Shown here piece by piece: positions 3,254 through 63,669 of a stretch of 64,000 nucleotides of DNA. The DNA is taken from the NCBI GenBank assembly GCA_965215305.1, contig OZ244041.1, positions 1,257,689-1,321,688 of the forward strand, read 5' to 3'. Each line of letters opens with the position of its first letter. Position 1 is the stretch's first letter. This DNA comes from Alphaproteobacteria bacterium (GTDB lineage Bacteria > Pseudomonadota > Alphaproteobacteria > Bin95). Below the pieces are notes generated by a model. It did not search any database. It was not told where the DNA came from and saw nothing but the letters and a program-made list of their open reading frames with translations. A program made the position numbers and the translations under genes.

Positions 3254-4516
3254 TTACTCCGCTGCGTCCGCAGCCTTGCGGCGGCTGTCCTGGCCGGCGA
3301 CCCGGACCGAGGCCTTCACCACCGGCACATCGGCTTCGGCGAGCGGTTGCATATATTGCTTGCGGGCGAGCGCGGCCTCTATGAAGGGCGCGAGTTCCGC
3401 GGCCTTGGCGGCTTCGCGCGCCTCCGCGTCGCGGGCGAATTCCGGCATGACCGTCTCCGCGAAGAGTTTCAGCGAGTTGCAGATATTCGCGTGGCTGTTG
3501 CGGCCGGCCTGCTGGAGAAAGATCACCTGGTCCACGCCCGCCGCCTGCATGTCGGCGAGGTGGCGCGCCATGTCGTCCGGCGTGCCGATGCCGGCGCCGT
3601 CATATTCCGCACGGGCGAGCGCCGCCTGGATCAGCAGGTCGGTCGCGGCGCCCCGTTTGGCGGTGAACTCGCCCCAGATGTCGGAATAGCCGGGCGTGAA
3701 GTCCTCGGCCACGAGCTTCTGCTGCGCATAGCGGAAGAACTCGAAATGGTCCTGGCCGCGCCGGATCGCCTCCGCCCGGTCCTCATGCATGGAGAAGGCC
3801 GAGACCATGGCGAGATTGGCGTTGACCGACCAGCCGAGCGGCACACAGTCCTCGCTGCGGATCGTGTCGTAATAGATGCCGGACCAGGTGCGCGCCTCTT
3901 CGGGATCGAGGAAGGAGAAGGCGAGCGCGCCGATCCCGTTCTGCGCGGCGACGCGGATCGTGTCGCGGTTGGTGCAGGCCATCCAGAGCGGTGGATGCGG
4001 CTCTTGCAGCGGCTTCGGCAGCACATTGCGGCAGGGCATGGAGAAGCCCTCGCCCTCGAAGCCGGGATAGGGCGTGAGCACCATCATGTTGCAGATCTGC
4101 TCCGCCGCCTCCAGTGCGAGCGCGCGCTTGCGCCGGGCGGAAATGCCGAAGGCGCCCAGCTCCAGCCGCGTCGCGCCTTCCCCTATGCCGAATTCGACCC
4201 GTCCATCCGAAATGAGGTCGAGCGTGGCAAGGCCCTCGGCCGTGCGCGCCGGATGGTTGTAAGCGGGAATGACCTGGCGGATGCCGTGGCCGAGCCGGAT
4301 GCGCTTCGTGCGGGCCGCGGCCGCGGCGAGGAAGACTTCCGGCGCGGAGGCATGGCTGTATTCGTCGAGAAAATGATGCTCGACCTCCCACGCATAGTCG
4401 AAACCCAACCTGTCGGCGAGCTCCACCTGATCGAGTGCCTCCTTCATCAGCCGGTATTCGGCGCCCTCGGTCCAGGGCCGCGGCAATTGCAGTTCGTAAA
4501 ACACCCCGAAACGCAT
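3254..4516 (-). CDS. LLM-class (luciferase-like) flavin-dependent oxidoreductase
   Basis: MRFGVFYELQLPRPW start is the typical LLM N-terminus. The start is chosen at the internal ATG preceded by GGAGG; the ORF extends to 4537 with a TTG. Confidence 0.75.
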   Translation of the reverse strand: MRFGVFYELQLPRPWTEGAEYRLMKEALDQVELADRLGFDYAWEVEHHFLDEYSHASAPEVFLAAAAARTKRIRLGHGIRQVIPAYNHPARTAEGLATLDLISDGRVEFGIGEGATRLELGAFGISARRKRALALEAAEQICNMMVLTPYPGFEGEGFSMPCRNVLPKPLQEPHPPLWMACTNRDTIRVAAQNGIGALAFSFLDPEEARTWSGIYYDTIRSEDCVPLGWSVNANLAMVSAFSMHEDRAEAIRRGQDHFEFFRYAQQKLVAEDFTPGYSDIWGEFTAKRGAATDLLIQAALARAEYDGAGIGTPDDMARHLADMQAAGVDQVIFLQQAGRNSHANICNSLKLFAETVMPEFARDAEAREAAKAAELAPFIEAALARKQYMQPLAEADVPVVKASVRVAGQDSRRKAADAAE

Positions 4517-4668
4517 CGGACGGTTTGCCTCCATCAAGACCGGACAGCGGAAACGGGACGGCGCCCGTTCCGGCGGCGCAGGCGTGCGCCGGAGCCGAGT
4601 TTAGTGCGCCGGCCGGCGGAACGACAGGCGTCCCGCGGCGAGGCGCCGTTCGCGACTATGCGCCGGCC

Positions 4669-6536: not shown

Positions 6537-7811
6537 ATGTTCATGAAAACGTTCGGGAAAATGACGACCGGCAAGTGGTTCGTAAGGTCGCTTGCGGCGC
6601 TTGCGATGTCGGCCTCGATGGCCTTCGCATCGCCTGCCCAGGCGAATGACACCATCAAGATCGGATTCAGCATGGCGCTGACCGGCGGCCTCGCCGGCGC
6701 CGGCAAGGGCGCGCTCATCGCCATGCAGGTCTGGGCGGAGGACATCAACGCCGCCGGCGGCCTGCTCGGCAAGCAGGTCGAGCTCGTCTATTACGACGAC
6801 CAGACCAACCCGGCCACCGTGCCGGCCATCTACACCAAGCTGCTGGATGTGGACAAGGTGGACTTCGTGGTCTCGGGCTACGGCACGAATCTCATCGCCC
6901 CGGCAATGCCGATCGTGATGCAGCGCGGCCTGGTGTTCCCGGCGCTGTTCGGTCTCGCGGTCAACGAAAAGTTCAACTACTCCAACTATTTCCAGATCAT
7001 GCCGGCGGGCCCGAAGCCGATGACGGACTGGTCGCGCGGTTTCTTCGAACTCGCCATGGAGCAGGATCCGCCGCCCAAGACCATCGCGCTTGTGGGCGCG
7101 GATGCGGAATTCGCCCGCAATGCGGTGATCGGCGCCCGGGTCAATGCGGAGGAATACGGGCTCGAAATCGTCTATGACGAGTCCTATCCGCCCCGGACGG
7201 CGGACTACACGCCCATCGTCAACGCCATCCAGGCCCGCAACCCGGATGTCGTGTTCGTCGCCTCCTATCCGCCGGACTCCGTCGGCATGGTGAAGGCCGC
7301 CACCGAGGTCGGCCTCAAGGCGAGAATGTTCGGCGGCGGCATGGTCGGGCTCCAGTTCGCCTCGATCATGACCGCGCTCGGGCCGAAGCTGAACGGCATT
7401 GTCAATTACGACTTCTGGGTGCCGGAGCCGACGCTCAAATTCGAGGGTGTCGAGGCGTTCCTCGAGAAATACCAGGCGGCGGCGGTCGGCAAGGGCGTCG
7501 ATCCGCTCGGCTACTATCTCCAGCCCTACGCCTATGCCTATCTCCAGGTGCTGGGGCAGGCGATTACCGCTACGGGCGGCATGGACCACGCTGCGATCGG
7601 CGACTACATCCGCAGCAACGAGTTCAACACGGTGGTCGGCAAGGTGAGCTTCGCGCCGAACGGCGAATGGGCGAAGACCCGCGTGCTGATGGTCCAGTAC
7701 CAGGGCGTCGACGACAGCGAACTCGCGACCTTCACGAAGGAGGGGACGCGCGTCGTGCTCTACCCGAAGGAATGGAAATCGGGTGACATCAACGTCCCCT
7801 ATGCCGAGTAG
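6537..7811 (+). CDS. ABC transporter substrate-binding protein, branched-chain amino acid (LivK/Leu-Ile-Val-binding) family
   Basis: Signal peptide (MFMKTFGKMTTGKWFVRSLAALAMSASMAFASPAQA) followed by a type I periplasmic binding fold. AGGGAGG RBS. Confidence 0.8.
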   Translation: MFMKTFGKMTTGKWFVRSLAALAMSASMAFASPAQANDTIKIGFSMALTGGLAGAGKGALIAMQVWAEDINAAGGLLGKQVELVYYDDQTNPATVPAIYTKLLDVDKVDFVVSGYGTNLIAPAMPIVMQRGLVFPALFGLAVNEKFNYSNYFQIMPAGPKPMTDWSRGFFELAMEQDPPPKTIALVGADAEFARNAVIGARVNAEEYGLEIVYDESYPPRTADYTPIVNAIQARNPDVVFVASYPPDSVGMVKAATEVGLKARMFGGGMVGLQFASIMTALGPKLNGIVNYDFWVPEPTLKFEGVEAFLEKYQAAAVGKGVDPLGYYLQPYAYAYLQVLGQAITATGGMDHAAIGDYIRSNEFNTVVGKVSFAPNGEWAKTRVLMVQYQGVDDSELATFTKEGTRVVLYPKEWKSGDINVPYAE

Positions 7812-9758: not shown

Positions 9759-10485
9759 AGGCGGGGCGCGCGGCGTGCTGCTCGAGGCGCGGGCGGTCAC
9801 CAAACGGTTCGGCGGCTTCACCGCGCTCGACGGGGTGAGCCTCGATGTGCGCGCCGGCGAGCGGTTCGGGATGATCGGCCCGAACGGCTCGGGCAAGACG
9901 ACCATGATCAACTGCATCTCAGGCACGCTCTCGAACGAAGGCGGCGAGATCCGCTTCAAGGGCGAGGCGCTGGACGGCCGCAAGCCGCATGAGCGCACGC
10001 GGCTCGGCATCGCCCGGTCGTTCCAGATTCCGAAGCCGTTCCGGTCGATGACGGTGCTGGAGAACCTCGTCATCCCGCTCGAATACGCCACGGACATCGC
10101 GCCCGCGGAGATCGCCGGACGCGGCATGGCGATTCTGGAAACCATCGGCCTCGCGGATCGCGCCGGCGAAAACTCCGGGAAACTGACCCAGATCGACATG
10201 CGCAAGCTGGAGCTCGCGCGGGCGATGGCGACAGAACCCCAACTGCTGATTTCGGATGAGGCGATGGCGGGCCTGTCCTCCGCCGAGGTGGATGACATAC
10301 TGGACATCCTGTTCCGCCTGAACGAGGACGGCATCACCATCATCATGATCGAGCACATCATGCGCGCCGTGATGCGCTTCTCGGAACGGATCGTCGTGCT
10401 CGACGCCGGCCGCAAGATCGCGGAGGGCGGGCCGGACGAGATCATCAACGATCCCGAGGTCGAGAGGGCCTATCTCGGTGAGTAG
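9748..10485 (+). CDS. livG: ABC transporter ATP-binding protein (LivG-type)
   Basis: Walker A GPNGSGKTT, signature and Walker B present. Overlaps livM by 11 nt. Confidence 0.85.
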   Translation: MTDEGGARGVLLEARAVTKRFGGFTALDGVSLDVRAGERFGMIGPNGSGKTTMINCISGTLSNEGGEIRFKGEALDGRKPHERTRLGIARSFQIPKPFRSMTVLENLVIPLEYATDIAPAEIAGRGMAILETIGLADRAGENSGKLTQIDMRKLELARAMATEPQLLISDEAMAGLSSAEVDDILDILFRLNEDGITIIMIEHIMRAVMRFSERIVVLDAGRKIAEGGPDEIINDPEVERAYLGE

Positions 10486-11209
10486 GATCACCGTCAGCGA
10501 TGTGGAAGCAGGCTACGGGTCGGTGCGCGTGCTGCATGGCGTGTCGATCTCGGTGGAGCCGGGCGAGACGGTCGCCCTGCTCGGCACCAATGGCAACGGC
10601 AAGTCCACGCTGATCCATTGCATCATGGGCATCGTCCGGCCTACTGCCGGCTCCATCCTGCTGGAAACCGACGATGGCGCGCGGATCGAGCTTATCGGCA
10701 AGACGCCCCAGGAGGTTGTGGAACTCGGCATTTCCCTCGTCCCGGAAGGACGGCGCCTGTTTCCGCGCCTGACGGTGGAAGAAAACCTGATGCTTGGCGC
10801 TTACCGGGAGTCGGCGCGGCGGCAGATCGACGCCAATCTGGCGTTCTGCTTCGAGGCGTTTCCGGTTCTCGCCGAACGCCGGAGGCAGCTCGCGGGCTCC
10901 ATGTCCGGAGGTGAGCAGCAAATGCTTGCGATTGCCCGCGCGCTCATGTCCGAGCCGCGCATCCTGCTGGTGGACGAACCGTCGGTCGGTCTTGCGCCGA
11001 TACTCGTCAGCCGGATGATCGCAAAGATCAGGGAGTTGAAGGAGCAGCGGAACCTGACCGTGTTGATGGCCGAGCAGAATTTCAACCAGGCGATCAAGAT
11101 CGCCGACCGCGGCTACATCATCGTGCATGGCGACATCGCCTTCGCGGCCTCATCGGCCGCGGCGCTCGCGGAAAACGAGATGGTCAAGCAATACTATCTC
11201 GGCGCATGA
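10478..11209 (+). CDS. livF: ABC transporter ATP-binding protein (LivF-type)
   Basis: Walker A GTNGNGKST and signature SGGEQQML. Overlaps livG by 8 nt. Confidence 0.85.
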   Translation: MSRITVSDVEAGYGSVRVLHGVSISVEPGETVALLGTNGNGKSTLIHCIMGIVRPTAGSILLETDDGARIELIGKTPQEVVELGISLVPEGRRLFPRLTVEENLMLGAYRESARRQIDANLAFCFEAFPVLAERRRQLAGSMSGGEQQMLAIARALMSEPRILLVDEPSVGLAPILVSRMIAKIRELKEQRNLTVLMAEQNFNQAIKIADRGYIIVHGDIAFAASSAAALAENEMVKQYYLGA

Positions 11210-11246
11210 GCCGGGCGCCGGCGCCCCGACACCCGGAGTTCCCCCC

Positions 11247-12341
11247 TTGAAACTCGGCTTCTTCACCATGCCGATCCACCGGCTGGACCGGAATTACACC
11301 GAGGTGCTGCAGGAGGACCGCGAGGCCGTCATCCTCGCCGACCGGCTCGGCTATTCGGAGGCCTATGTCGGCGAGCATGTCACCGATGCGGCCGAGAGCA
11401 TCACCAATGCGATGCTGTTCCAGGCGAGCCTGATTTCCGACACGAAGCAGATCCGGCTCGGCACCGGCACCGCCAATCTCTCGCACACCCATCCCGTGCT
11501 CATCGCGGCCCAGGCGGCCATGCTGGACCACCTGCTGAAAGGCCGGTTCCTGTTGGGCATCAGCCCCGGCGCGCTCGAATCCGACGCCGAGGCGCTCGGC
11601 ATACGCAGCCTCGACCGGGGCGAGATGTTCCTGGAATCCATCGGCCATATCCTGGACATATGGCAGGGCGAGCCGCCCTACGACCTCAAGGGCAAACACT
11701 GGAAGATCACCACCCGCGAGACGCTCTTCCCGGAGATCGGGGTCGGCCCGATCGCGAAGCCCTACCAGAAGCCGCACCCGCCCGTCCTCGCCACGGTGGT
11801 CTCTCCGCATTCGAAGAGCGCGGTCGAGATCGGCCGGAGGGGCTTCTTCCCGATCTCGGCGAATTTCCTCCAGCCGAATTGGGTCCCCACCCATTGGGCG
11901 AAATACAGGCAGGGATGCGCGGAGGCGGGACGCGCTGCGGACCGCGGCAACTGGCGGATCGCGCGGTCGATCTTCGTCCATGACGACCACCGGACCGCGC
12001 TCGACTACGGCAAGGAGAATGCGCGGAGCCCCTATCGCTTCTATTTCCGCCAGCTCTTCACCAAGCTGAAGAAGGCGAACCGCCACGCCGCCTTCAAGCC
12101 TGATCCGGCGTTCCCGGACGAGGAGCTCACCCTCGACTATGTGGTCGAGAGCCTCGTCATTGCAGGCGACCCGGCAAGCGTCGTGGACCAGCTGCTCGCC
12201 TTCCGCGAGGTGACCGGCGATTTCGGCACGCTGCTCTATGCCGGCAAGGACTGGGAGGACAAGGCGCTCGGCACACGCTCGATGGAGCTGATGGCGGAGA
12301 AGGTCATGCCGGCGCTCAACGCGGCCATCGGCGCCGGGTGA
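11247..12341 (+). CDS. LLM-class flavin-dependent oxidoreductase
   Basis: LKLGFFTMPIH N-terminus typical of the LLM family. TTG start preceded by GGAG; the ATG alternative is 21 nt further in. Confidence 0.7.
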   Translation: MKLGFFTMPIHRLDRNYTEVLQEDREAVILADRLGYSEAYVGEHVTDAAESITNAMLFQASLISDTKQIRLGTGTANLSHTHPVLIAAQAAMLDHLLKGRFLLGISPGALESDAEALGIRSLDRGEMFLESIGHILDIWQGEPPYDLKGKHWKITTRETLFPEIGVGPIAKPYQKPHPPVLATVVSPHSKSAVEIGRRGFFPISANFLQPNWVPTHWAKYRQGCAEAGRAADRGNWRIARSIFVHDDHRTALDYGKENARSPYRFYFRQLFTKLKKANRHAAFKPDPAFPDEELTLDYVVESLVIAGDPASVVDQLLAFREVTGDFGTLLYAGKDWEDKALGTRSMELMAEKVMPALNAAIGAG

Positions 12342-18670: not shown

Positions 18671-19618
18671 TCAATCGGCGTAACCGCCCATCACCTCCTC
18701 GACGAAGCGGTCCACGGTCGCCATCGCGGTATCCACGGTCGACTCATGGATGCGGCCGGGAATGGTGTACCAGGGATTGAGCGTGATGTGCTCCAGGCCC
18801 ATCTCCCGCGCCATGTCCAGCTTGCGGCATATGTCGTCGCGGTTGCCGACAAAGGCGTAACCGTCGCCGAGGAAGTCCGTTGCGTCGATGTCGAAGGCGA
18901 GCGTCGCGTGCAGCGAGCGCGCGATGCTGGCGGGGTCGCGGCCTGCCTCCTCGGCCATGCGGTCGAGCAGTTTGAGCCGTCGGCGTAGGTCATCTGCGGT
19001 CCATTGCACTGAGCCCGGGCGCCGCGCCGAGGTGATAGGATGCCAGCCGTCCCCGTAACGTATGACGCGCTCCAGCGCGCGTTCGTTGTTGCCGCCGATC
19101 CAGATCGGCGGGCGCGGCTTCTGCGCCGGCGGCGGGTCGAAGGCGAAATCCCCGAACTCGTAGAATTCGCCCCGGAAGTCGTTCGGCCCCTCCGACCACA
19201 ACCGGTCGAGGATGCGCAGCATCTCGTCCGCCCTGGCGCCCCGGCGAGCGAAGGGCACACCCAGCGCCTCGTATTCCTCCCGGATCCAGCCAAAGGCGAC
19301 GCCGTAAATCGTCCGCCCGCCGGAGAGGTCGTCCACGCTCGCCATCTCCTTGGCAAGCGTCACGGGATGGCGGTAGGGCAGCACGATCACTGTCGTGCCG
19401 AGCTTCACCCGATCGGTGATGCCGGCGAGGAAGCCCAAAGTGCTGAACAGCCCGTAAACCCTGTCCGAGAATCGTTCGACGAAGGGACGGGGCACGATGA
19501 TGTGGTCGATGGCCCAGATCGAGGCGAAGCCCGTATCTTCCGCTATCCGGGCCATCCGTTCCAGACTGGCCCGATTGGCGAAGGCGCCGTGCTGCGGCAT
19601 TACCAGTCCGAATTTCAT
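18671..19618 (-). CDS. LLM-class flavin-dependent oxidoreductase
   Basis: MKFGLVMPQHGAFANRASLERMARIAEDTGFASIWAIDH. Confidence 0.75.
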   Translation of the reverse strand: MKFGLVMPQHGAFANRASLERMARIAEDTGFASIWAIDHIIVPRPFVERFSDRVYGLFSTLGFLAGITDRVKLGTTVIVLPYRHPVTLAKEMASVDDLSGGRTIYGVAFGWIREEYEALGVPFARRGARADEMLRILDRLWSEGPNDFRGEFYEFGDFAFDPPPAQKPRPPIWIGGNNERALERVIRYGDGWHPITSARRPGSVQWTADDLRRRLKLLDRMAEEAGRDPASIARSLHATLAFDIDATDFLGDGYAFVGNRDDICRKLDMAREMGLEHITLNPWYTIPGRIHESTVDTAMATVDRFVEEVMGGYAD

Positions 19619-19693: not shown

Positions 19694-19722
19694 AAAGGGC
19701 GGCTTCCGGAAGAGGCCGCCCT
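19694..19722. terminator. perfect 9-bp GC-rich inverted repeat (AAGGGCGGC-N11-GCCGCCCTT); candidate terminator downstream of the AhpD-like gene
   Basis: Seen directly in the sequence. T-containing tracts on both sides. Position fits a 3' hairpin for the minus-strand gene ending at 19786. Confidence 0.35.
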
Positions 19723-19785: not shown

Positions 19786-20910
19786 TCAGACCTTGCCGGC
19801 GGCGGCGGGGTAGTCGTTTATGCCGAGCGTGCCCCGGAAATCCGCGGAGAGGCGGGCCTTCTCGTCCTCCAGCGGGATGCCGGTCGCATCGGCGATGCGG
19901 ACGACGGCGTTGAAGATGGCGAGCACGCCAGCCGCATCAACCAGCGCTTCGCTGCCGACCTCGTCATGCAGCCGGCTTCGCGCTGCGGCGAAATCCGCGC
20001 GGCCGTCCTCGAAGAAGGCGTCGGCGTAGCGGGCGAGCGCCTCTCCCGCCGCGACGCCGCCGTCTGCCGCGTCCTCGGCAACCATCGCCGCAAGGTCGTA
20101 GTCGTCGCCTGTGTGTCGGCCGCTCCCACGGAGCAGCACCGCATGGCTGGTGGTTCAATAGACGCAGTGATTGATCGCGGACACTCGCCCCGCCAGGAAC
20201 TCGATCTGGGCATGGGTGAGCGCGCGGTATTCGGTGCCGAAATCCCTGAGTTGCGCATCCGGCAGGTAATGCACGGAGTCCATGTCGAAGAACCCGGTGA
20301 CTTCCGCCGGCACGAGCGAGAGCGCGCGGTGGATGTTCACGGCGGCGAGCCCCTCATACATGCCGGCTTCCGCGTCCGTCAGGTCCTCCGGCGCCACGGT
20401 CGGGACCCAGGCGAGTCCTTCCTTCGCGCCGGCCGGCCGGCGCCGGCGCGGCGTGCCGGGAAGCGGCGCGGGCAGGCTGTGGCGCGGCAGGCCCATGGCG
20501 TCGCAGAAGCTGTCCACGGCGATGACCGTCGCCATGACGCCCACGGTCTCGACATATTCCACATCGCTCAGGCCCCCCGCCAGCGCCTCCTCGTAGAAGC
20601 GGCGGGTGAGCCGCCCGGGATCGGTGCGGATGCGGTGGATGACCTCCACCAGCGCGTCAGGCAGGTCCGTCATCGTCTCATGTGCGCCGGTCACGGTGTA
20701 GGGCGAGAGCGCCGCTTGGCGCTCGCGGCAGATGCCGCAAGACTCGGCGGCGCGGGTCTCCTCCGCGATGGCGATGCGCACCGCGCCCGGCCACCACTCG
20801 CCCGGCGCCGCCAGCCGAGCCCAGGCGCGCTGCTGGGCGGCGGCAAGGTCGGCCCGTACCGGCAAGGGGCTCAGGCGATAGTCGAGGACTGCTGCGGATT
20901 CGACGGACAT
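19786..20910 (-). CDS. AhpD/carboxymuconolactone-decarboxylase-family peroxidase-related protein with in-frame TGA (probable selenocysteine) at 20155..20157
   Basis: Two ORFs (20155..20910 and 19786..20139) are in the same frame, separated by a single TGA. Read-through translation gives ...AGRVSAINHCVY-U-TTSHAVLLRGSG..., i.e. the AhpD CxxCxxxH motif with Sec in place of the second Cys. Confidence 0.6.
20119..20137 (-). promoter_or_regulatory. SECIS-like hairpin (8-bp GC-rich stem, GUG-containing apical loop) starting 18 nt 3' of the in-frame UGA
   Basis: mRNA GCUGCUCC-GUG-GGAGCGGC. Spacing and apical GU are compatible with bacterial SECIS elements. Confidence 0.3.
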
Positions 20911-21034
20911 GGATACGCTCCCGCTTGCTGCCGGCCGCAGTCTATCACGGTTGCGCCCGGCGGGACGTCAGGCGCACGAGGAGCGAGCGCCGATTGCGGG
21001 CGACGGTCCGGGGGAGTAGAAGACGGGCGCCCGG

Positions 21035-48456: not shown

Positions 48457-49452
48457 CTAACGGGGCGCGCAGGCTTCTATGGCGGCCAGGAACGTCTCCT
48501 TCGCGCCGGGGCCGCGGGCGAAGGGGCTGATGATCGGCAGGTCCAGGCCAGAGGCGCGATAGGCGTCGAGCCGCTCCCGGCATGCGTCCGGTTCCCCGGC
48601 GACGCCGGTAGCGGCGATCATGTCGTCGGTGACGGCCCGCTCCGCCGCCGCCCGGTCGCCGGCAGCCCAGGCCCTGGCGACGGCCGCCGCCTCCTGTTCG
48701 AAGCCGCTTTCGGCGATCAGGCGGTTGTAGCGGGGGAAGAAACCCGCATAGAAGGCGAGACCCGGCCGGGCGGCGGCGAAGGCCTTGCGCCGGTCCGCCG
48801 AGACGCTTGTCGGCAGGAGCGAGCTGATCTCGACCTCTGCCGGGTCGCGGCCGGCGCGGCCGGCGCCGGCGGCAATGTGGACGCGCGCCCGCGCCGCCGT
48901 CTCCAGTGTGCCGCGGGTGAGGATCAGGCCGTCCGCGACTTCGCCGCAAAGCGCTGTCATCTTCGGGAAGAGCGCGGAGTGGTAGATCGGGATGTCGGCC
49001 CGGAACGGCCGGAACCAGAGGTCGAAGCGCTCTATGCGGACCGTCTCGCCTTCATGGCCGACCTCGCCGTCGCGGAGCAGCTTGCGCACTACCGCCGTCG
49101 TGTCGCGCACCCGGGCGAGCGGTTTGGCGTAGTCCACCCCGTGCTCGGGCTCGACCTGGACCCTGTGGCTGGAGCCGAGGCCGAGCACGAAGCGGCCGCC
49201 GGAAAGCTCGTCCACCGCAGCAGCGGCCATGGCGATGGTGGGCGCGGTGCGCACGAACACGCTGGTAATGGCGGTGCCGAGGCGCACGCGCTTCGTGCGG
49301 AGCGCGCAGGCGGCCAGAATTGCGAACTGGTCGCCGCCATGTCCCTCCGCGACCCACACCGACTCGTAGCCCAGCGCCTCGGCCCGCTCGGCGCAATCGG
49401 CGATCTCGGTGGCGGTCAACCCGCCCGAAAACGCGATTCCGATGCGTGTCAT
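48457..49452 (-). CDS. LLM-class flavin-dependent oxidoreductase
   Basis: 331 aa from MTRIGIAFSGGLTATEIADCAERAEALGYESVWVAEGHGGD. GGGAGGA RBS. Confidence 0.75.
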   Translation of the reverse strand: MTRIGIAFSGGLTATEIADCAERAEALGYESVWVAEGHGGDQFAILAACALRTKRVRLGTAITSVFVRTAPTIAMAAAAVDELSGGRFVLGLGSSHRVQVEPEHGVDYAKPLARVRDTTAVVRKLLRDGEVGHEGETVRIERFDLWFRPFRADIPIYHSALFPKMTALCGEVADGLILTRGTLETAARARVHIAAGAGRAGRDPAEVEISSLLPTSVSADRRKAFAAARPGLAFYAGFFPRYNRLIAESGFEQEAAAVARAWAAGDRAAAERAVTDDMIAATGVAGEPDACRERLDAYRASGLDLPIISPFARGPGAKETFLAAIEACAPR

Positions 49453-49618
49453 GATGCGGATCCTCCCTGTCTCCCGCGCCGATGTTCGGCCGGGGCCGGG
49501 GGCGGCGCAAGGGTTCGGTTGCGGCCGGGGAAAGCAGGGCGGCATAATCGGGACGCAGACGCCCGCTGCGGGAACGGGCTCCTCTATCCGACGGCAAGGA
49601 TGAAAGGCGCGCAATCCG

Positions 49619-50533
49619 GTGTTCGAAGCCGCTGAAACGCTCCAGCACGCCGCCTGGCTGGCGGTGGCGGGTGGCATGGTCCTGCTGGCGCTCGGCGGCG
49701 TCCACCTGCTGCTGGTCTATGCCGGGCTGCTCGTGAGGAGGGAGCGCGGCTGGAGCCACTGGGCGGGAAGACGGTCCTTCACCGCCGCGCTGGTGCTGCT
49801 GCTCGGCGCGGCGCTGATGCAGGTGGTGGCGCATCGCGGCCTCTCCGGCCGCCCGGACAGCGCCATCGCCGCCACGCCCAAAGTCGCGGATGGCGCCGCC
49901 GCGCCGAACACGGCGAACATTACGGATGGCGGCATTGGCGCCGCCGCGCCGAACGCGGGAGAGGTCCTGGCCGCACGGGAGCCGGCGGAGGACAGCCCGA
50001 AGGCGACCATGCACCCGGGCGTCTCGGCTGCAGCGGCCGCAGCCGCTTTCGGCGAGGCGCTCGCCGCCCGGAGCGCCGGGCGGGCGGCGGAGGCCGAGCG
50101 CGCCTACGGCCGAGCCCGCGATGCCTTCGCCGCGCTGGGCGACGCAAGGCGGGAGGCGGACGCGCTGCACGGGCTCGGTGATATGGCGCTTGCCCGCAGG
50201 GATATTGCCGGCGCGGAGCGGCTCTATATGGAAGCGCGGCGGCTCTTCGCCGGCCTCGGCAACAGGATCGGCGAGGCGAATGCGCTGGTCGGGCTCGCCT
50301 CGGTGAAAGCGCAGAGCGGTCGTCGCGAGGAGGCCGCGCGCCGGCTCGACGAGGCCCATGTCATCTATCTCAGCGCGGTCTCCGTCGGCGGCCGCGCCAA
50401 TGTCGCGCTGGCGCGTGCGGGCCTGGCGACCGATCCGGCAAGGGCGCGACGGCTCTACCGGGACGCCGCCGGCCTCTATATGCGGGCGGGCCTGCCGGAC
50501 TGGGCCGACTACGCGCTCAGCCGCGCGCGCTGA
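49619..50533 (+). CDS. membrane-anchored TPR-like repeat protein (hypothetical)
   Basis: N-terminal TM helices followed by Ala/Arg-rich tandem helical repeats (YGRARDAFAALGD..., LYMEARRLFAGLGN...). GTG start is uncertain. Confidence 0.5.
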   Translation: MFEAAETLQHAAWLAVAGGMVLLALGGVHLLLVYAGLLVRRERGWSHWAGRRSFTAALVLLLGAALMQVVAHRGLSGRPDSAIAATPKVADGAAAPNTANITDGGIGAAAPNAGEVLAAREPAEDSPKATMHPGVSAAAAAAAFGEALAARSAGRAAEAERAYGRARDAFAALGDARREADALHGLGDMALARRDIAGAERLYMEARRLFAGLGNRIGEANALVGLASVKAQSGRREEAARRLDEAHVIYLSAVSVGGRANVALARAGLATDPARARRLYRDAAGLYMRAGLPDWADYALSRAR

Positions 50534-58987: not shown

Positions 58988-59725
58988 ATGCACCGCCTCA
59001 TCTCGCTCGAAGGCGCAACGAATGTCCGCGACCTCGGCGGCTACGAGGCCGTTGACGGCCGCCGGGTCCGCTGGCGTCGGCTGTTCCGGGCCGACGGGCT
59101 GCACCGGCTGACCTCCGGCGACGGCGAGGCGCTGGCGGCGCTCGGCCTCGGGGAGGCGCTGGACCTGCGCTACGGGCCGGAGCGCGCGGGCGAGCCCGCC
59201 TGCTTGCCCGAGGGAATCTCGAGCGTGCATATCGGCCTCGCCGAGGCGCCGGGCGCGTCGCTGCTGGAGACGCTGAACCTGGGCGGCGTGACCTCGTCGC
59301 AGGCCGCGATGGCGTGGCTGACGGCAAGCTATGCGGGATACCCGGACGTCTATGCGCCCGCCTGCGGGGCGATCCTCCGCCGGTTGATTGCCACCGGCGC
59401 GCCGCCGCTGCTCTTCCACTGCATCGCCGGCAAGGACCGCACGGGCTTCGCCGCCGCCATCGTGCTGGAGGCGCTGGGCGTGTCCCGCGAGACGATCATG
59501 GAGGACTATCTGCTCACCAACCGCCACTGGGACCGCGGCGACCGCGAACCCGAAGGCCTGCCGCGCGAAATCTACGAACCGGTGTTCTCCGCGAGGGAGG
59601 ACTATCTGGCCGCTTCATGGGCAACACTGGACCGGGACCATGGCGGGCTGGAGGCATGGCTCGACAGAGCGGTGGATTTCGGCGCAGCGGAGCGGGAGCA
59701 GCTCAGGGCGGGGTTGCTGGAGTAG
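58988..59725 (+). CDS. protein-tyrosine phosphatase (Y_phosphatase3-like)
   Basis: P-loop HCIAGKDRTG (CX5R). Confidence 0.75.
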   Translation: MHRLISLEGATNVRDLGGYEAVDGRRVRWRRLFRADGLHRLTSGDGEALAALGLGEALDLRYGPERAGEPACLPEGISSVHIGLAEAPGASLLETLNLGGVTSSQAAMAWLTASYAGYPDVYAPACGAILRRLIATGAPPLLFHCIAGKDRTGFAAAIVLEALGVSRETIMEDYLLTNRHWDRGDREPEGLPREIYEPVFSAREDYLAASWATLDRDHGGLEAWLDRAVDFGAAEREQLRAGLLE

Positions 59726-59745
59726 AGAAGGTCGACAAAATTACG

Positions 59746-60633
59746 TCAAACCACCTCAAAGCCATTAACTCCCCGCCTCAGAACATCGACTCGGAGTTTG
59801 TGGCGCAACACGCCCAAGTGTTTATGCCAAGCCTCTTCGCGTCTTGGTTTGCCATCATCGAAGATAATTAATCTAAGCCTGTCGTCAATACCGAGCGGGC
59901 TGCTTGGCTCTGCAGCCGCAAGAATCAGAGGGTCAAGATGAGGCAGTGCTGTTAATCTGGAAGCCATTATATGGAAGTTCCTGATAATCCCACAAGTCTG
60001 CCTGTAAGCTTCAACAATCCTCTGTCGCCGCTCTCGGCTGTCGAGATATACTCGATATCTATCTATTTGACCGAGAACTTTCGGCTGCTGAATACTTGAG
60101 CGCAATCGACTATCTGAAATCATCTTTGCTTCCGAAAATGCAAGTCGAAGATCATCCGCATTTCCCTCTAAAGAAACAATATCTATGCGCAAAGAATTTT
60201 TCCCACCATCGTAAGCAGGCAAACCCATCTCTAGGTCAATTATAGTCGGTGTTTCGTCAATCAACGTATCGATATTTCGTTTTTCTTCATTGGTGTAGTT
60301 TGATGACCTGTTGATCCAAGCATCAAGCGTTTGCAGATCGTTATATTTCATTTTGTTATCACCGGTAGAATTTCCTTCCATGTCAAATGTAATGTATCCC
60401 TTTTCATCTCTAGGTGAATCGATCACGTATTTCTTGTGAATACGAAGAGCCAGTTTTCGATCTCTCCGATTATAAGTAATCTTTGCAATGGATTGGCCCT
60501 TTACATAGAAACTCATATAACCATTGCGGATCGCAATCCGCAGCATACCAGTACTACCGCTTGGTGCCCAATTCGCAAGTAGATCTGGCAGCCAACCTGT
60601 TTTTTCTGAAACTAGTTTACCGGCGACCTTCAT
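59746..60633 (-). CDS. hypothetical protein, low-GC orphan (about 295 aa)
   Basis: A long open frame in a very AT-rich stretch is unlikely by chance. No recognisable motif. Confidence 0.45.
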   Translation of the reverse strand: MKVAGKLVSEKTGWLPDLLANWAPSGSTGMLRIAIRNGYMSFYVKGQSIAKITYNRRDRKLALRIHKKYVIDSPRDEKGYITFDMEGNSTGDNKMKYNDLQTLDAWINRSSNYTNEEKRNIDTLIDETPTIIDLEMGLPAYDGGKNSLRIDIVSLEGNADDLRLAFSEAKMISDSRLRSSIQQPKVLGQIDRYRVYLDSRERRQRIVEAYRQTCGIIRNFHIMASRLTALPHLDPLILAAAEPSSPLGIDDRLRLIIFDDGKPRREEAWHKHLGVLRHKLRVDVLRRGVNGFEVV

Positions 60634-60705
60634 TGCTTCGTCTGATAGTGCTCTGCCAAATGGACACACGAGAGCTGCCTTTCTTTAGAAGGTGAGCAGG
60701 AGATT

Positions 60706-61770
60706 TTAAACCTCCCACCATTCGCCGTCCACCCTCGGGACGACATTGTCGAAGAATTCCGGGTAGCGGCCGGTCTCGAAGGAATGTATCGGCACCAGCG
60801 CGCGAGGGGCAAGGGCGGCGGCGAAGCGTTGCAGGTCGGCGGCCGAGGCGTGGCCGGAGGTATGGAGGACCTGCCATTCGATGCCGTGTCGGTCGAGCCA
60901 GTCCAGCACCGGGCGGGAGGAGTCCTCCTTCAGATAGCCCTGCCACATCGAGTAGCTGAAGCGCGCGCCCTCCAGCGCCGAGCGGACGCCACTGTCGGGC
61001 CTCGCCGTCGGGCGGAACAGCATGACGGCGCGCGCGGCGAGGCCGGGCAGGTCTTCCGGATAGACGCGGTTCCTGCTGTGCCGTTTGAGGTCCTTGAACA
61101 GCCCGTGTTCCTTGATGAATACCCGCTGGCGCTGCGGAATGTAGACCTTCACCTCCGGCCAGTGCGACTGCGGAACGCGGTCGCGCCCGGTCGCTTCCAG
61201 AACCACCGCCGTATAGAGGTCGATCAGCAGCACCCGGCCCGACTGCTTGGCCGCGCGGAAGATCGTGACGATCCGGTCGATGTTCTGCGAGGAGGTCCAG
61301 ACGAAGTGCATGCCCTCCGTCTGCCGAAAGGCCTCGATGAACCGTTCTTCGAGATCCGTCTCGGTCTCGAAGCCCTCCGCCGTTCCCGTTCGCCCGAGCG
61401 TCGTGCCCTCCATCAACAGCGCGTCGATATCCCCGGGCGGGTTGCGGACCAGCCGTTCGAACAGCGGCCTCTTGCGGCCGTGGGCGCGGAAGTCGCCGGA
61501 ATAGAAGACCCGCCTGCCATCCGCCTCGACCATGAGCGCATAGGCATCGAAGGCGCTGTGGTCGACCAGCCAGGGCATGATGCGAAACGGCCCGATCTCG
61601 AACGGCCGCCGGTCGACGAGGAAATGCGGGGCGGCGAAGGCAAAGCCCTTCGGAATCCAGGGACGGGCAGCTTTCAGGATGTTGTGCGCGGCCTCGCCGA
61701 TCCAAACCGGCACCTCCGGGCGGATATGTGCGGCGAGGCCGTAATGGTCCATATGGCCGTGCGAGATCAT
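60706..61770 (-). CDS. MBL-fold metallo-hydrolase (beta-CASP-like), N-terminus possibly truncated
   Basis: HGHMDHYG (HxHxDH) occurs only about 28 residues from the first possible start. C-terminal SGHA-type motif. Confidence 0.65.
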   Translation of the reverse strand: MISHGHMDHYGLAAHIRPEVPVWIGEAAHNILKAARPWIPKGFAFAAPHFLVDRRPFEIGPFRIMPWLVDHSAFDAYALMVEADGRRVFYSGDFRAHGRKRPLFERLVRNPPGDIDALLMEGTTLGRTGTAEGFETETDLEERFIEAFRQTEGMHFVWTSSQNIDRIVTIFRAAKQSGRVLLIDLYTAVVLEATGRDRVPQSHWPEVKVYIPQRQRVFIKEHGLFKDLKRHSRNRVYPEDLPGLAARAVMLFRPTARPDSGVRSALEGARFSYSMWQGYLKEDSSRPVLDWLDRHGIEWQVLHTSGHASAADLQRFAAALAPRALVPIHSFETGRYPEFFDNVVPRVDGEWWEV

Positions 61771-61994
61771 GACGCCGAGCAGGCTGTCGTCGCGCTCCCG
61801 CAAGCCCGGACGGTCGTGCGCACCGCCCGGCCGTTCACGGTCCCGTGCCACACGAAACTGCGATGACCGGAAGGACGGACCCGCACGCCCAGCCCGGCAA
61901 CGCGAATGTCCCTGACGATATATTCCGTCCCGCCCGGCTTCATTCTTGCGACGCCTGCATCCGTCAGGCGGACCTTCCTCGCCCTGCCGGTCAT
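61767..61994 (-). pseudogene. integrase N-terminal arm-binding (DUF4102-type) domain fragment
   Basis: LTDAGVARMKPGGTEYIVRDIRVAGLGVRVRPSGHRSFVWHGTVNGRAVRTTV matches P4-type integrase arm domains. It runs into the MBL gene with no catalytic domain. Confidence 0.5.
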
Positions 61995-63118
61995 GACTGC
62001 GCCCCCGAGAGCAGGGGCGACAGGGCCTCGACCGTCTCCCGGACCGTCGCGTCGGAGAGATGCGCGTATTTCAGCGTGGTCGCCGCATTGTCATGGCCCA
62101 GCAACCGTCCCACCGTGCGGATCGTCTCGCCGCTCGACAGCGCTATGCTGGCGAAGCTGTGGCGCGTGTCATGAAGGCGCATGCCCTCCAGACCAGCCTC
62201 GGCGCGTATCTGTTTCCAGAAGGCATCCAGCCAGTTCCAGGGTGCCCTCAAGCCTCCGACGGGAAAGACGACTCGCGAGGACCGCGGCAGCCGGTCAAGA
62301 ACTTCCCGCGCTGCTCGGCACAGCCACACCGTGCGCGGTCCCGTCTTGCTGTCTTCGAGGAACAGGCGGCCGTCGCGGTAGAAGCGCCATTCCAGGGTGA
62401 CGATCTCCGATTTGCGGCAGCCGGTCAGCAATAGCAGGCGCAAGGCCGCGACCTGGAAGGGCTGCCGGGCCTCATGCCGGTCCAGAACCATGCCGAGGCG
62501 GCGATACTCCTCCGGGGACAGGAAGCGCTCGCGCCGCTTCTGCCGGTAGCGCCTGATGCCCTTGCAGGGATTGCCCCCTTCAGGGCGAAGGCCCCAAGCT
62601 TCGGCCTGCTGCATGATGACGGACAGGATCGGCGCCGAACGGTTCGCCGCCGCCGGCGTGGCATGGAGCGAGCGAAACCAGCGCTGCACTTCATCGCGGT
62701 CGATCTCCGCAATCGGCTTGCCCGCGAAACAGGGCAGGATATTGCCATGAAGATAGCTGCGGTTGACCGCGAGCGTGCGCGGCTTCCAGCGCCTGCCATA
62801 GCGCGTGAAGACTTCTTCGGCCACGGTCTCGAACAGGGCATTGCCGGACGCTTCCACTTCAATGTCCCTGTCGTCGCGCAGTGCGGCCAGCATGGACCGG
62901 GCGCAGGCGCGCGCCTCGGCCTCGGTCATGACCGCCGCGTCGCCGACGATCTTCCAGAACCGATGGCCCCGGTGCTGGCTGTGGATGAAATACCGCTTCG
63001 TGCCCGAGGGCGTGATGCGGACGCCGTATCCCTTCAGTTCGGCGTCCCGCACATTACGGACGGTCTTGCGGGGCCGGAGGGTATCGACCCGGCGTTGGGT
63101 GAGGCGAATGGCTGCCAT
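61991..63118 (-). CDS. tyrosine-type site-specific recombinase/integrase (P4-like, with own arm domain)
   Basis: 376 aa from MAAIRLTQRRVDTLRPRK. Catalytic R...HxxR...Y region (LHDTRHSFAS...LGHDNAATTLKYAHL). Confidence 0.9.
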   Translation of the reverse strand: MAAIRLTQRRVDTLRPRKTVRNVRDAELKGYGVRITPSGTKRYFIHSQHRGHRFWKIVGDAAVMTEAEARACARSMLAALRDDRDIEVEASGNALFETVAEEVFTRYGRRWKPRTLAVNRSYLHGNILPCFAGKPIAEIDRDEVQRWFRSLHATPAAANRSAPILSVIMQQAEAWGLRPEGGNPCKGIRRYRQKRRERFLSPEEYRRLGMVLDRHEARQPFQVAALRLLLLTGCRKSEIVTLEWRFYRDGRLFLEDSKTGPRTVWLCRAAREVLDRLPRSSRVVFPVGGLRAPWNWLDAFWKQIRAEAGLEGMRLHDTRHSFASIALSSGETIRTVGRLLGHDNAATTLKYAHLSDATVRETVEALSPLLSGAQS

Positions 63119-63669
63119 GATTGCGGTTCCCCGATCCTTTGCACTGGTGTGCAAAACCGGGTTCGGTCTCGCGCCCGGTTGCACCGGAAACGGGGAAAAT
63201 CCACAATCATATCAGACAGTTAGCACCGGAGGTGCGCGCCCCTGTGTATGCGCAGTCTCATGTCGGCGCTCCTTCGCTCGATACACTGTCTATTTCAGTT
63301 CGGAGGCCGAGAAGTTTACCGGATCGGGCACGGCGTTCTGCCTCCCCCTTCAGTCCAGCAGCGCTTCGCCCGGCCGGATGCGGATGAAGGCGACGGGTTC
63401 GGAGGCAGCCGCGAGCGCGCCGTCGGCAAGGCGCACTGCGGTGTAGCGCGTGGCGGCGAGGTTGCCCGTCTCCGGGAAGTCCTCGCGGGCGCAGGCTGTC
63501 GCGGTAGCAGCGCGCGAGACCGTCACCAGGCTGTCCAGGTTCAGCCGGTCGTGCCAGGCGAGGTTGCAGGCGGCGCTGCTGGAGTAGGGGCGGGCCGACA
63601 TCGGGCGCCAGGCGCTTGCCCCGGCCCCGCCTGCTCGGGGACGCCCGGCAGGGCGGGCTGCGGTGTCCG

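Follow-up and report, generated by a model that had tools for sequence, protein, structure and literature searches.

A probable two-domain AhpD-related selenoprotein gene of the NF041238 family, with an in-frame UGA codon in its CxxU motif

In the sea, the selenocysteine (Sec) proteins related to AhpD that carry a CxxU motif rank with the most abundant selenoprotein families (PMC2398784). The family closest to the gene described here was found in 2005, when the Sargasso Sea selenoproteome was reported to contain a "hypothetical protein 1" family with a CxxU motif and a predicted SECIS (Zhang, Fomenko and Gladyshev 2005; PMC1088965), and a table in a 2026 review equates this "hypothetical protein 1" with the NCBIfam model NF041238 (PMC13188914). 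Hence, both the literature and NCBIfam already contain the family, together with its CxxU motif and its Sec/Cys duality. The protein analysed here shares with NF041238, which is named 'AhpD_rel_CFYUT', alkylhydroperoxidase-related (seleno)protein, the CxxU motif, the length of about 360 aa, the two-part architecture and the occurrence of Sec and Cys forms in one family. The motif in the name of the model is C-F-Y-U-T, while here it is C-V-Y-U-T, and otherwise there is no essential difference.

Other described proteins are more distant. The marine selenoproteins 'AhpD-like 1' (COG2128/TIGR01926) and 'AhpD-like 2' (CMD, PF02627) have the CxxU motif in the same helix-turn-helix (PMC1088965, PMC2398784), and, like the present protein, they have Sec in place of the second Cys and, directly after it, a SECIS of the bacterial type. 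However, they are single-domain proteins of about 180-200 aa, while the present protein has about 200 additional N-terminal residues, which form an AhpD-like domain with a CxxC of its own. The AhpD of Mycobacterium tuberculosis (1gu9), PA0269 of Pseudomonas aeruginosa (2o4d) and the AhpD of Deinococcus radiodurans (6k40) contain Cys instead of Sec, and their single-domain protomers oligomerise, in contrast to the two domains found here. The mycobacterial AhpD acts with AhpC from the same operon, whereas no ahpC-type gene, that is, no AhpC/TSA-type match, was found among the 40 ORFs scanned in the window (the whole 64-kb stretch of DNA that was analysed). The eukaryotic Sestrin-2 (5cuf), which is without Sec, has no detectable sequence relationship to the present protein, and the likeness between them is one of architecture only.

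The minus-strand frame that runs from position 20910 to 19786 of the window is interrupted only once, by the TGA at 20157..20155, which is located inside the sequence HCVY-U-TTSH. The ORF list contains the two parts of this shared frame as 20155..20910 (251 aa) and 19786..20139 (117 aa, GTG start). The initial annotation had read these two ORFs as one gene split only by the TGA, and both the coordinates and the motif were confirmed. Translation through the TGA gave ...RVSAINHCVY*TTSHAVLLRGSG..., which corresponds to C249-x-x-U252-x-x-x-H256. It had also been expected that standard gene callers would split the gene, and this is how an identical copy appears on contig ctg124910 of the ENA assembly ERZ25070917, where it is called as separate products of 251 aa and 117 aa. 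An exact look-up of the 251-aa fragment gave no match, and the identical contig was reached through a cluster member and GroEL. The GC3 value is 0.86 upstream of the TGA and still 0.84 downstream of it, which indicates that the coding signal carries on beyond this codon. A scan of all six frames of the 64-kb window for TGA codons with coding-like flanks picked out 20155..20157 and two further sites, both of them ordinary junctions between genes in the same frame. Plain adjacent genes apart, no other TGA in the window joins two ORFs of one frame. The features of the gene and its borders are as follows:

19786..20910, minus strand: predicted complete selenoprotein gene, 374 codons including Sec252, with the ATG at 20910..20908 and the terminal TGA at 19788..19786
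20155..20157, minus strand: UGA predicted to be read as Sec (U252); TGA in 80/80 loci, and Cys in 17/19 full-length homologues
20918..20922, minus strand: Shine-Dalgarno-like GGGAG, 7 nt 5' of the ATG, read from the sequence and of presumed role
19697..19721, minus strand: possible, weak intrinsic terminator 3' of the gene, made of GGGCGGC, an 11-nt loop and GCCGCCC, followed by UUUCGAUU

The terminator candidate was absent from the output of the consensus terminator scan, as its 11-nt loop is longer than 8 nt. The presence of GGGAG before the ATG and of a possible terminator hairpin after the gene makes the gene look monocistronic. Overall, the region 19786..20910 on the minus strand is very probably a single functional gene, which encodes a 374-residue two-domain AhpD-related selenoprotein of the NF041238 family, with the UGA at 20157..20155 read as Sec.

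The membership of the protein in this family was assessed with profile models. When Cys was used in place of the stop, the read-through protein matched NF041238, which is an equivalog model, with 469.1 bits (E = 9.7e-141, cutoff 175), and its residues 18-368 were aligned to positions 1-356 of the 357 in the model. The separate fragments matched positions 1-238 (N-terminal) and 240-356 (C-terminal), and therefore the skipped position 239 is that of the Sec/Cys residue. The name-giving C-x-Y-U/C-T motif is present as C249-V-Y-U252-T253. The corresponding C-x-Y-TGA-T was found in 80/80 related loci (see below), and V, F, Y, L, T, A, I and M all occur among the relatives between C and Y. The claim of the initial annotation that the gene belongs to a reported selenoprotein family is thus upheld by the NF041238 score of 469 bits and by the literature (PMC1088965, PMC13188914, PMC2398784). 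The sole Pfam domain seen was CMD (PF02627), with 26.2 bits versus a cutoff of 23 for residues 229-295. The score for TIGR01926 was 45.6 bits versus a cutoff of 81.8, and only residues 230-349 were covered. As judged from these scores, the protein is related to the TIGR01926 subfamily, but it is not a member of it.

The C-terminal part of the protein contains the CxxU motif within the following features:

19864..20226, minus strand: C-terminal AhpD/CMD-type domain, residues ~229-349, defined by PF02627, the sub-cutoff TIGR01926 match and PDB alignments
20143..20202, minus strand: predicted catalytic helix-turn-helix with the AhpD proton-relay signature E237-x11-C249-V-Y251-U252-x3-H256

The AhpD-like chains from the PDB aligned to residues 230-350, with U252 placed at the second Cys of the CxxC motif in 6k40, 2oyo and 3c1l. 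The proton relay of AhpD proteins consists of E36/C48/Y50/C51/H55 in PA0269, and of E118/C130/H132/C133/H137 in the M. tuberculosis AhpD (PMC3141380). The spacing of E237, C249, Y251, U252 and H256 is identical to that in both of these relays, and, among 77 full-length sequences, each of the five residues is kept in 97% or more. When the N-terminal fragment was used as the query of an exhaustive HMMER search against 1.84 billion cluster representatives, about 19 full-length homologues were obtained, which were 339-418 aa long and had 35-48% identity. In the U252 column of these 19 homologues there were 17 Cys and 2 Gly residues, while in the alignment of 20 sequences C249 and H256 were each present in 19/20, and C58 and C61 of the N-terminal part in 20/20. 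The six of these homologues that were scanned were NF041238 members with scores of 326-415 bits. The placement of the UGA at the second Cys of an AhpD-type C-x-x-C-x3-H motif, as had been proposed, is supported by the translation, by the PDB alignment and by the Cys found in 17/19 homologues.

The two full-length family members with Gly at the Sec/Cys position (FYG) are P0166 and P0244. The former is also without the first Cys, and it keeps the downstream peptide TTLHAMLLRASG, which is similar to that of the Sec forms. The Gly residues may reflect a TGA-to-GGA conversion that took place after the use of Sec had been lost.

The search of 5.8 billion protein clusters returned 827 matches, and the best 120 of these 827 were all 208-269 aa long. 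The 20 matches that were read out of the best 120 each end exactly at ...C-[V/F]-Y, which indicates that gene callers cut them at the same codon. As the public calls split the present gene and the best 120 of the 827 homologues are all such cut-down forms, the family is systematically mis-called in metagenome-derived protein catalogues.

The fate of the UGA codon in related genes was followed at the nucleotide level. A scan of one genome per species gave 177 relatives, from which 80 loci with 45-88% identity were retrieved. They came mostly from alphaproteobacterial MAGs, with some labelled as Beta- or Gammaproteobacteria or Burkholderiales, and one labelled as Candidatus Sulfotelmatobacter, an acidobacterial MAG. 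The codon aligned to 20157..20155 was TGA in 80/80 loci, as well as in the additional copies that L045 and L057 carry in tandem, and it was never TAA, TAG or a sense codon, while the true terminators of the 80 loci varied among TGA, TAA and TAG. Wherever it was readable to its end, the downstream frame had 113-133 codons and was without frameshift or stop. The mean amino-acid identity to the window protein was 61% downstream of the TGA versus 65% upstream, and the dN/dS values against the seven closest relatives were 0.15-0.37 downstream and 0.13-0.23 upstream. This substitution pattern indicates that the downstream part is under purifying selection.

These data bear on the explanation that the gene is a truncated or nonsense pseudogene, in which the TGA is a real stop, translation yields only 251 residues and the 122 codons that follow are in decay. 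Such a view would agree with the two fragments reported by gene callers, with the lack of visible Sec machinery in the window, and with locus L036, in which an extra in-frame stop at about position 10230 replaces the invariant Trp168, so that single copies can evidently be damaged (this stop is either a true inactivation or a MAG assembly error). However, the same TGA in 80/80 loci from Alpha-, Beta- and Gammaproteobacteria and the acidobacterial MAG, the downstream frame that is intact in every locus and has dN/dS values of 0.15-0.37, and the GC3 of 0.84 past the TGA argue against it. A truncation would also split the catalytic motif between its two redox residues, with the loss of H256. Hence, a nonsense pseudogene is excluded for the family, and is very unlikely for the present copy. 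The initial annotation had regarded orthologues with a sense codon unrelated to the catalytic Cys, or decay of the downstream half, as signs against a selenoprotein; instead, TGA is kept in the related loci, the more distant homologues have Cys in that column, and no downstream decay was seen.

Two tandem copies of the selenoprotein gene are present in each of two loci, at 4242..6502 of L057 and at 10001..12200 of L045, and every copy has its own TGA.

A hairpin compatible with a bacterial SECIS had been noticed downstream of the UGA, and it is present at the following positions:

20119..20137, minus strand: SECIS-like hairpin, GCUGCUCC-GUG-GGAGCGGC, 8 bp including one G-U pair, starting at the 18th nt after the UGA
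20120..20136, minus strand: conserved hairpin core, with a 6-bp stem (C/U)UGCUC / GAGC(G/A)(G/C) and the loop CGUGN

In comparison with the consensus, the loop in the window is closed by one extra C-G pair and the stem is longer by one G-C pair, which results in 8 bp and a GUG loop. The apical loop contains G and U, at a distance of 25-26 nt from the UGA. A UGA-to-loop distance of 16-37 nt and a G in the first positions of the loop are reportedly required by the 2005 bSECISearch model of Zhang and Gladyshev. Hence, the distance of the loop and its G/U content fit the published bacterial SECIS model. The folding energy of the hairpin was no better than that of shuffled sequences at this GC content of 68% (z = -0.3 and -0.8, with 69/200 and 43/200 shuffles folding as well), and therefore the support for the hairpin comes from the comparison of relatives rather than from thermodynamics. 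No Rfam family matched the hairpin region, either at gathering thresholds or at E values up to 10.

The comparison of relatives was based on a gapless alignment of 74 distinct sequences, which covered the UGA and the next 52 nt. The data showed that columns 23-29, 31 and 33-35 (UGCUCCG.G.GAG) were invariant, and that the inner five stem pairs could form in 74/74 sequences and the sixth, outer pair in 70/74. The outer pair had three double compensatory changes (A-U twice and G-C once), and further changes that keep the pairing were U-G to U-A (7) and G-C to G-U (6). As the element hardly varies, the covariation in it is modest. The pairing register was specific, with 88% of cells paired versus 32-64% when the 3' partner was slid by 1-3 columns. 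The third-position entropy at codons +7 to +12 was 0-0.38 bits, compared to 1.2-1.8 bits for equally conserved upstream Arg, Leu, Ala, Val and Ser codons. Leu+8 was encoded by CTC in 80/80 sequences, and Arg+9 by CGT in 75/80, even though CGT makes up only 4.4% of the Arg codons in the window. This freeze of synonymous sites is the strongest signal for the hairpin and shows a constraint at the RNA level, and so the nucleotide-level conservation in relatives strongly supports the element that had been proposed.

The position of the hairpin is also relevant to the idea that the locus consists of two separate genes, whose products of 251 and 117 residues, the latter starting from the GTG at 20139, would assemble non-covalently. 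The public gene calls do give the 117-aa ORF from this GTG; however, it is not preceded by a Shine-Dalgarno sequence, and it sits inside the conserved hairpin. Moreover, the codons between the TGA and the GTG (T-T-S-H-A), among them that of the catalytic H256, are conserved, the Cys-containing homologues are single polypeptides of 339-418 aa, and one HMM covers both parts contiguously. Two separate genes are therefore extremely improbable, and a single gene with a recoded UGA is the preferred reading.

The genes for Sec insertion were searched for in the window and at the related loci. No selA, selB or selD was found in the 64-kb window by the Pfam scan of 40 ORFs, and no tRNA-Sec was found there, with tRNA-Pro(UGG) being the single tRNA in the window. 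At four of the related loci, L057, L070, L079 and L080, a tRNA-Sec is located at most 10 kb from the selenoprotein gene, with selA and/or selB adjoining. In L079 and L080 both selA and selB are immediately upstream of tRNA-Sec, in L070 the end of selB is at the edge of the locus, and in L057 a selA-selB-tRNA-Sec cluster is divergent from the two tandem gene copies, which lie between this cluster and glutathione-disulfide reductase. The adjacency in these four relatives indicates that the family is physically linked to the Sec pathway. A further ARAGORN prediction in L079, a 'tRNA-Ala(GGC)' of 96 nt at 7578..7673 on the minus strand, lies opposite to the coding region of selA and shares its unusual length with the genuine tRNA-Sec, which is 2 kb distant; it is probably a false positive.

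If the source organism had lost or replaced the Sec pathway, the UGA could alternatively be translated as Cys or Trp, by means of a suppressor tRNA, a tRNA with a UCA anticodon or near-cognate read-through. The fact that Cys works at position 252 in distant homologues would be consistent with this. On the other hand, UGA is the commonest ordinary stop in the window, where it ends 23/41 genes, including the present one, which points to the standard genetic code, and a reassignment of the codon was rejected on this ground. In addition, the sole tRNA in the window is tRNA-Pro, the hairpin nucleotides are kept here and in the closest relatives, as expected only under SelB-type recoding, and the relatives with more flanking information have a canonical selA-selB-tRNA-Sec cluster. 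Decoding as an amino acid other than Sec is thus very improbable, and insertion of Sec is the better explanation of the UGA.

The N-terminal half of the protein has its own features:

20431..20859, minus strand: N-terminal domain with an AhpD-like all-helical fold, residues ~18-160
20728..20739, minus strand: invariant C58-G-I-C61 within the N-terminal domain

The fold-level evidence suggests that this half is a diverged second AhpD-like fold, which was previously unannotated. The initial description of the protein as a two-domain member agrees with this fold and with the invariant CGIC.

From these sequence data we infer the insertion of Sec in the source organism, as well as the enzymatic activity of the protein and its partner. 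SelB bound to Sec-tRNA(Sec) would be recruited by the mRNA hairpin 20137..20119, and would insert Sec at the UGA 20157..20155. The resulting Sec252 would replace the second Cys of an AhpD-type active site, E237-x11-C249-x-Y-U252-x3-H256. The protein is most likely a thiol/selenol oxidoreductase, predicted to cycle between a selenol-thiol form and a form with a C249-U252 selenenylsulfide. By analogy to AhpD, the target of its reducing activity would be a peroxiredoxin-type partner or else a small oxidised substrate. More speculatively, the N-terminal C58 and C61 may serve as an electron relay for the Sec centre or as a metal site.

A wider proposal is that the protein is a redox relay that is self-contained and has two centres, built on a fused double AhpD fold like that of sestrin. 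The selenenylsulfide between C249 and U252 would then be recycled by the invariant C58xxC61, or else this motif would bind a metal with H77 and H92, which are also invariant, and this lineage would use only the Sec form. The Sec form is present in 80/80 of the closest genomic loci, and no Cys form is seen above 48% identity. We consider this proposal tentative and rather unlikely as a whole, and nothing of it has been described for NF041238.

The selenoprotein gene is preceded by GroES, GroEL and the GroEL terminator, and a tRNA-Pro is divergent from it. The synteny with GroEL and tRNA-Pro upstream was seen only in the 11 closest relatives, and the downstream neighbours differ even between close relatives. 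A search among the relatives for a conserved operon partner found none, and conservation does not extend to the luciferase-like monooxygenase, GST-like and cupin genes downstream. With no conserved neighbour, the context therefore gives no hint at the function or the substrate.

The window has several other features. Four luciferase-like monooxygenase paralogues are present within 64 kb (3254..4600, 11067..12341, 18671..19618 and 48457..49716), one of them directly downstream of the selenoprotein gene, together with two GST-like genes. A low-GC island (0.52 versus about 0.68) at 38075..40158 on the plus strand, between a ubiE-type methyltransferase gene and fpg/mutM, encodes an ATPase of 536 aa (AAA_15/AAA_21, Walker A GPSNTGKS) and, overlapping with it, an ORF of 170 aa without a Pfam match; the island resembles a two-gene module gained by horizontal transfer, with defence as a possible role. 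The region 59700..60750 has a GC content of 0.45 and adjoins an ORF with a metallo-beta-lactamase fold and a phage-type integrase (61991..63211, minus strand), and the stretch 59700..63211, close to the end of the window, probably represents an integrated element.

One close relative among loci L001-L030 is a sponge bin by its title, Rhodospirillaceae bacterium Spongia_Bin9. The bin names APA_bin, CAR1_bin, COS4_bin and SB0661_bin resemble labels that we take to come from sponge metagenomes. The lineage may be sponge-associated.

The present gene leaves the general knowledge of selenoproteins unchanged, and the NCBI annotation models already cover the family. Its practical value is in annotation, as the gene is split into two "hypothetical" fragments in public calls. 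The related loci also provide a clean comparative view of a minimal bacterial SECIS, UGCUCCGUGNGAGC, which is nearly unchanged across several proteobacterial classes, and the analysis adds fold-level evidence for the N-terminal half as a second AhpD-like domain. If the two-centre relay with its Sec-only lineage were true, it would mean that the substrate of the protein makes selenium a mechanistic requirement and not an option.
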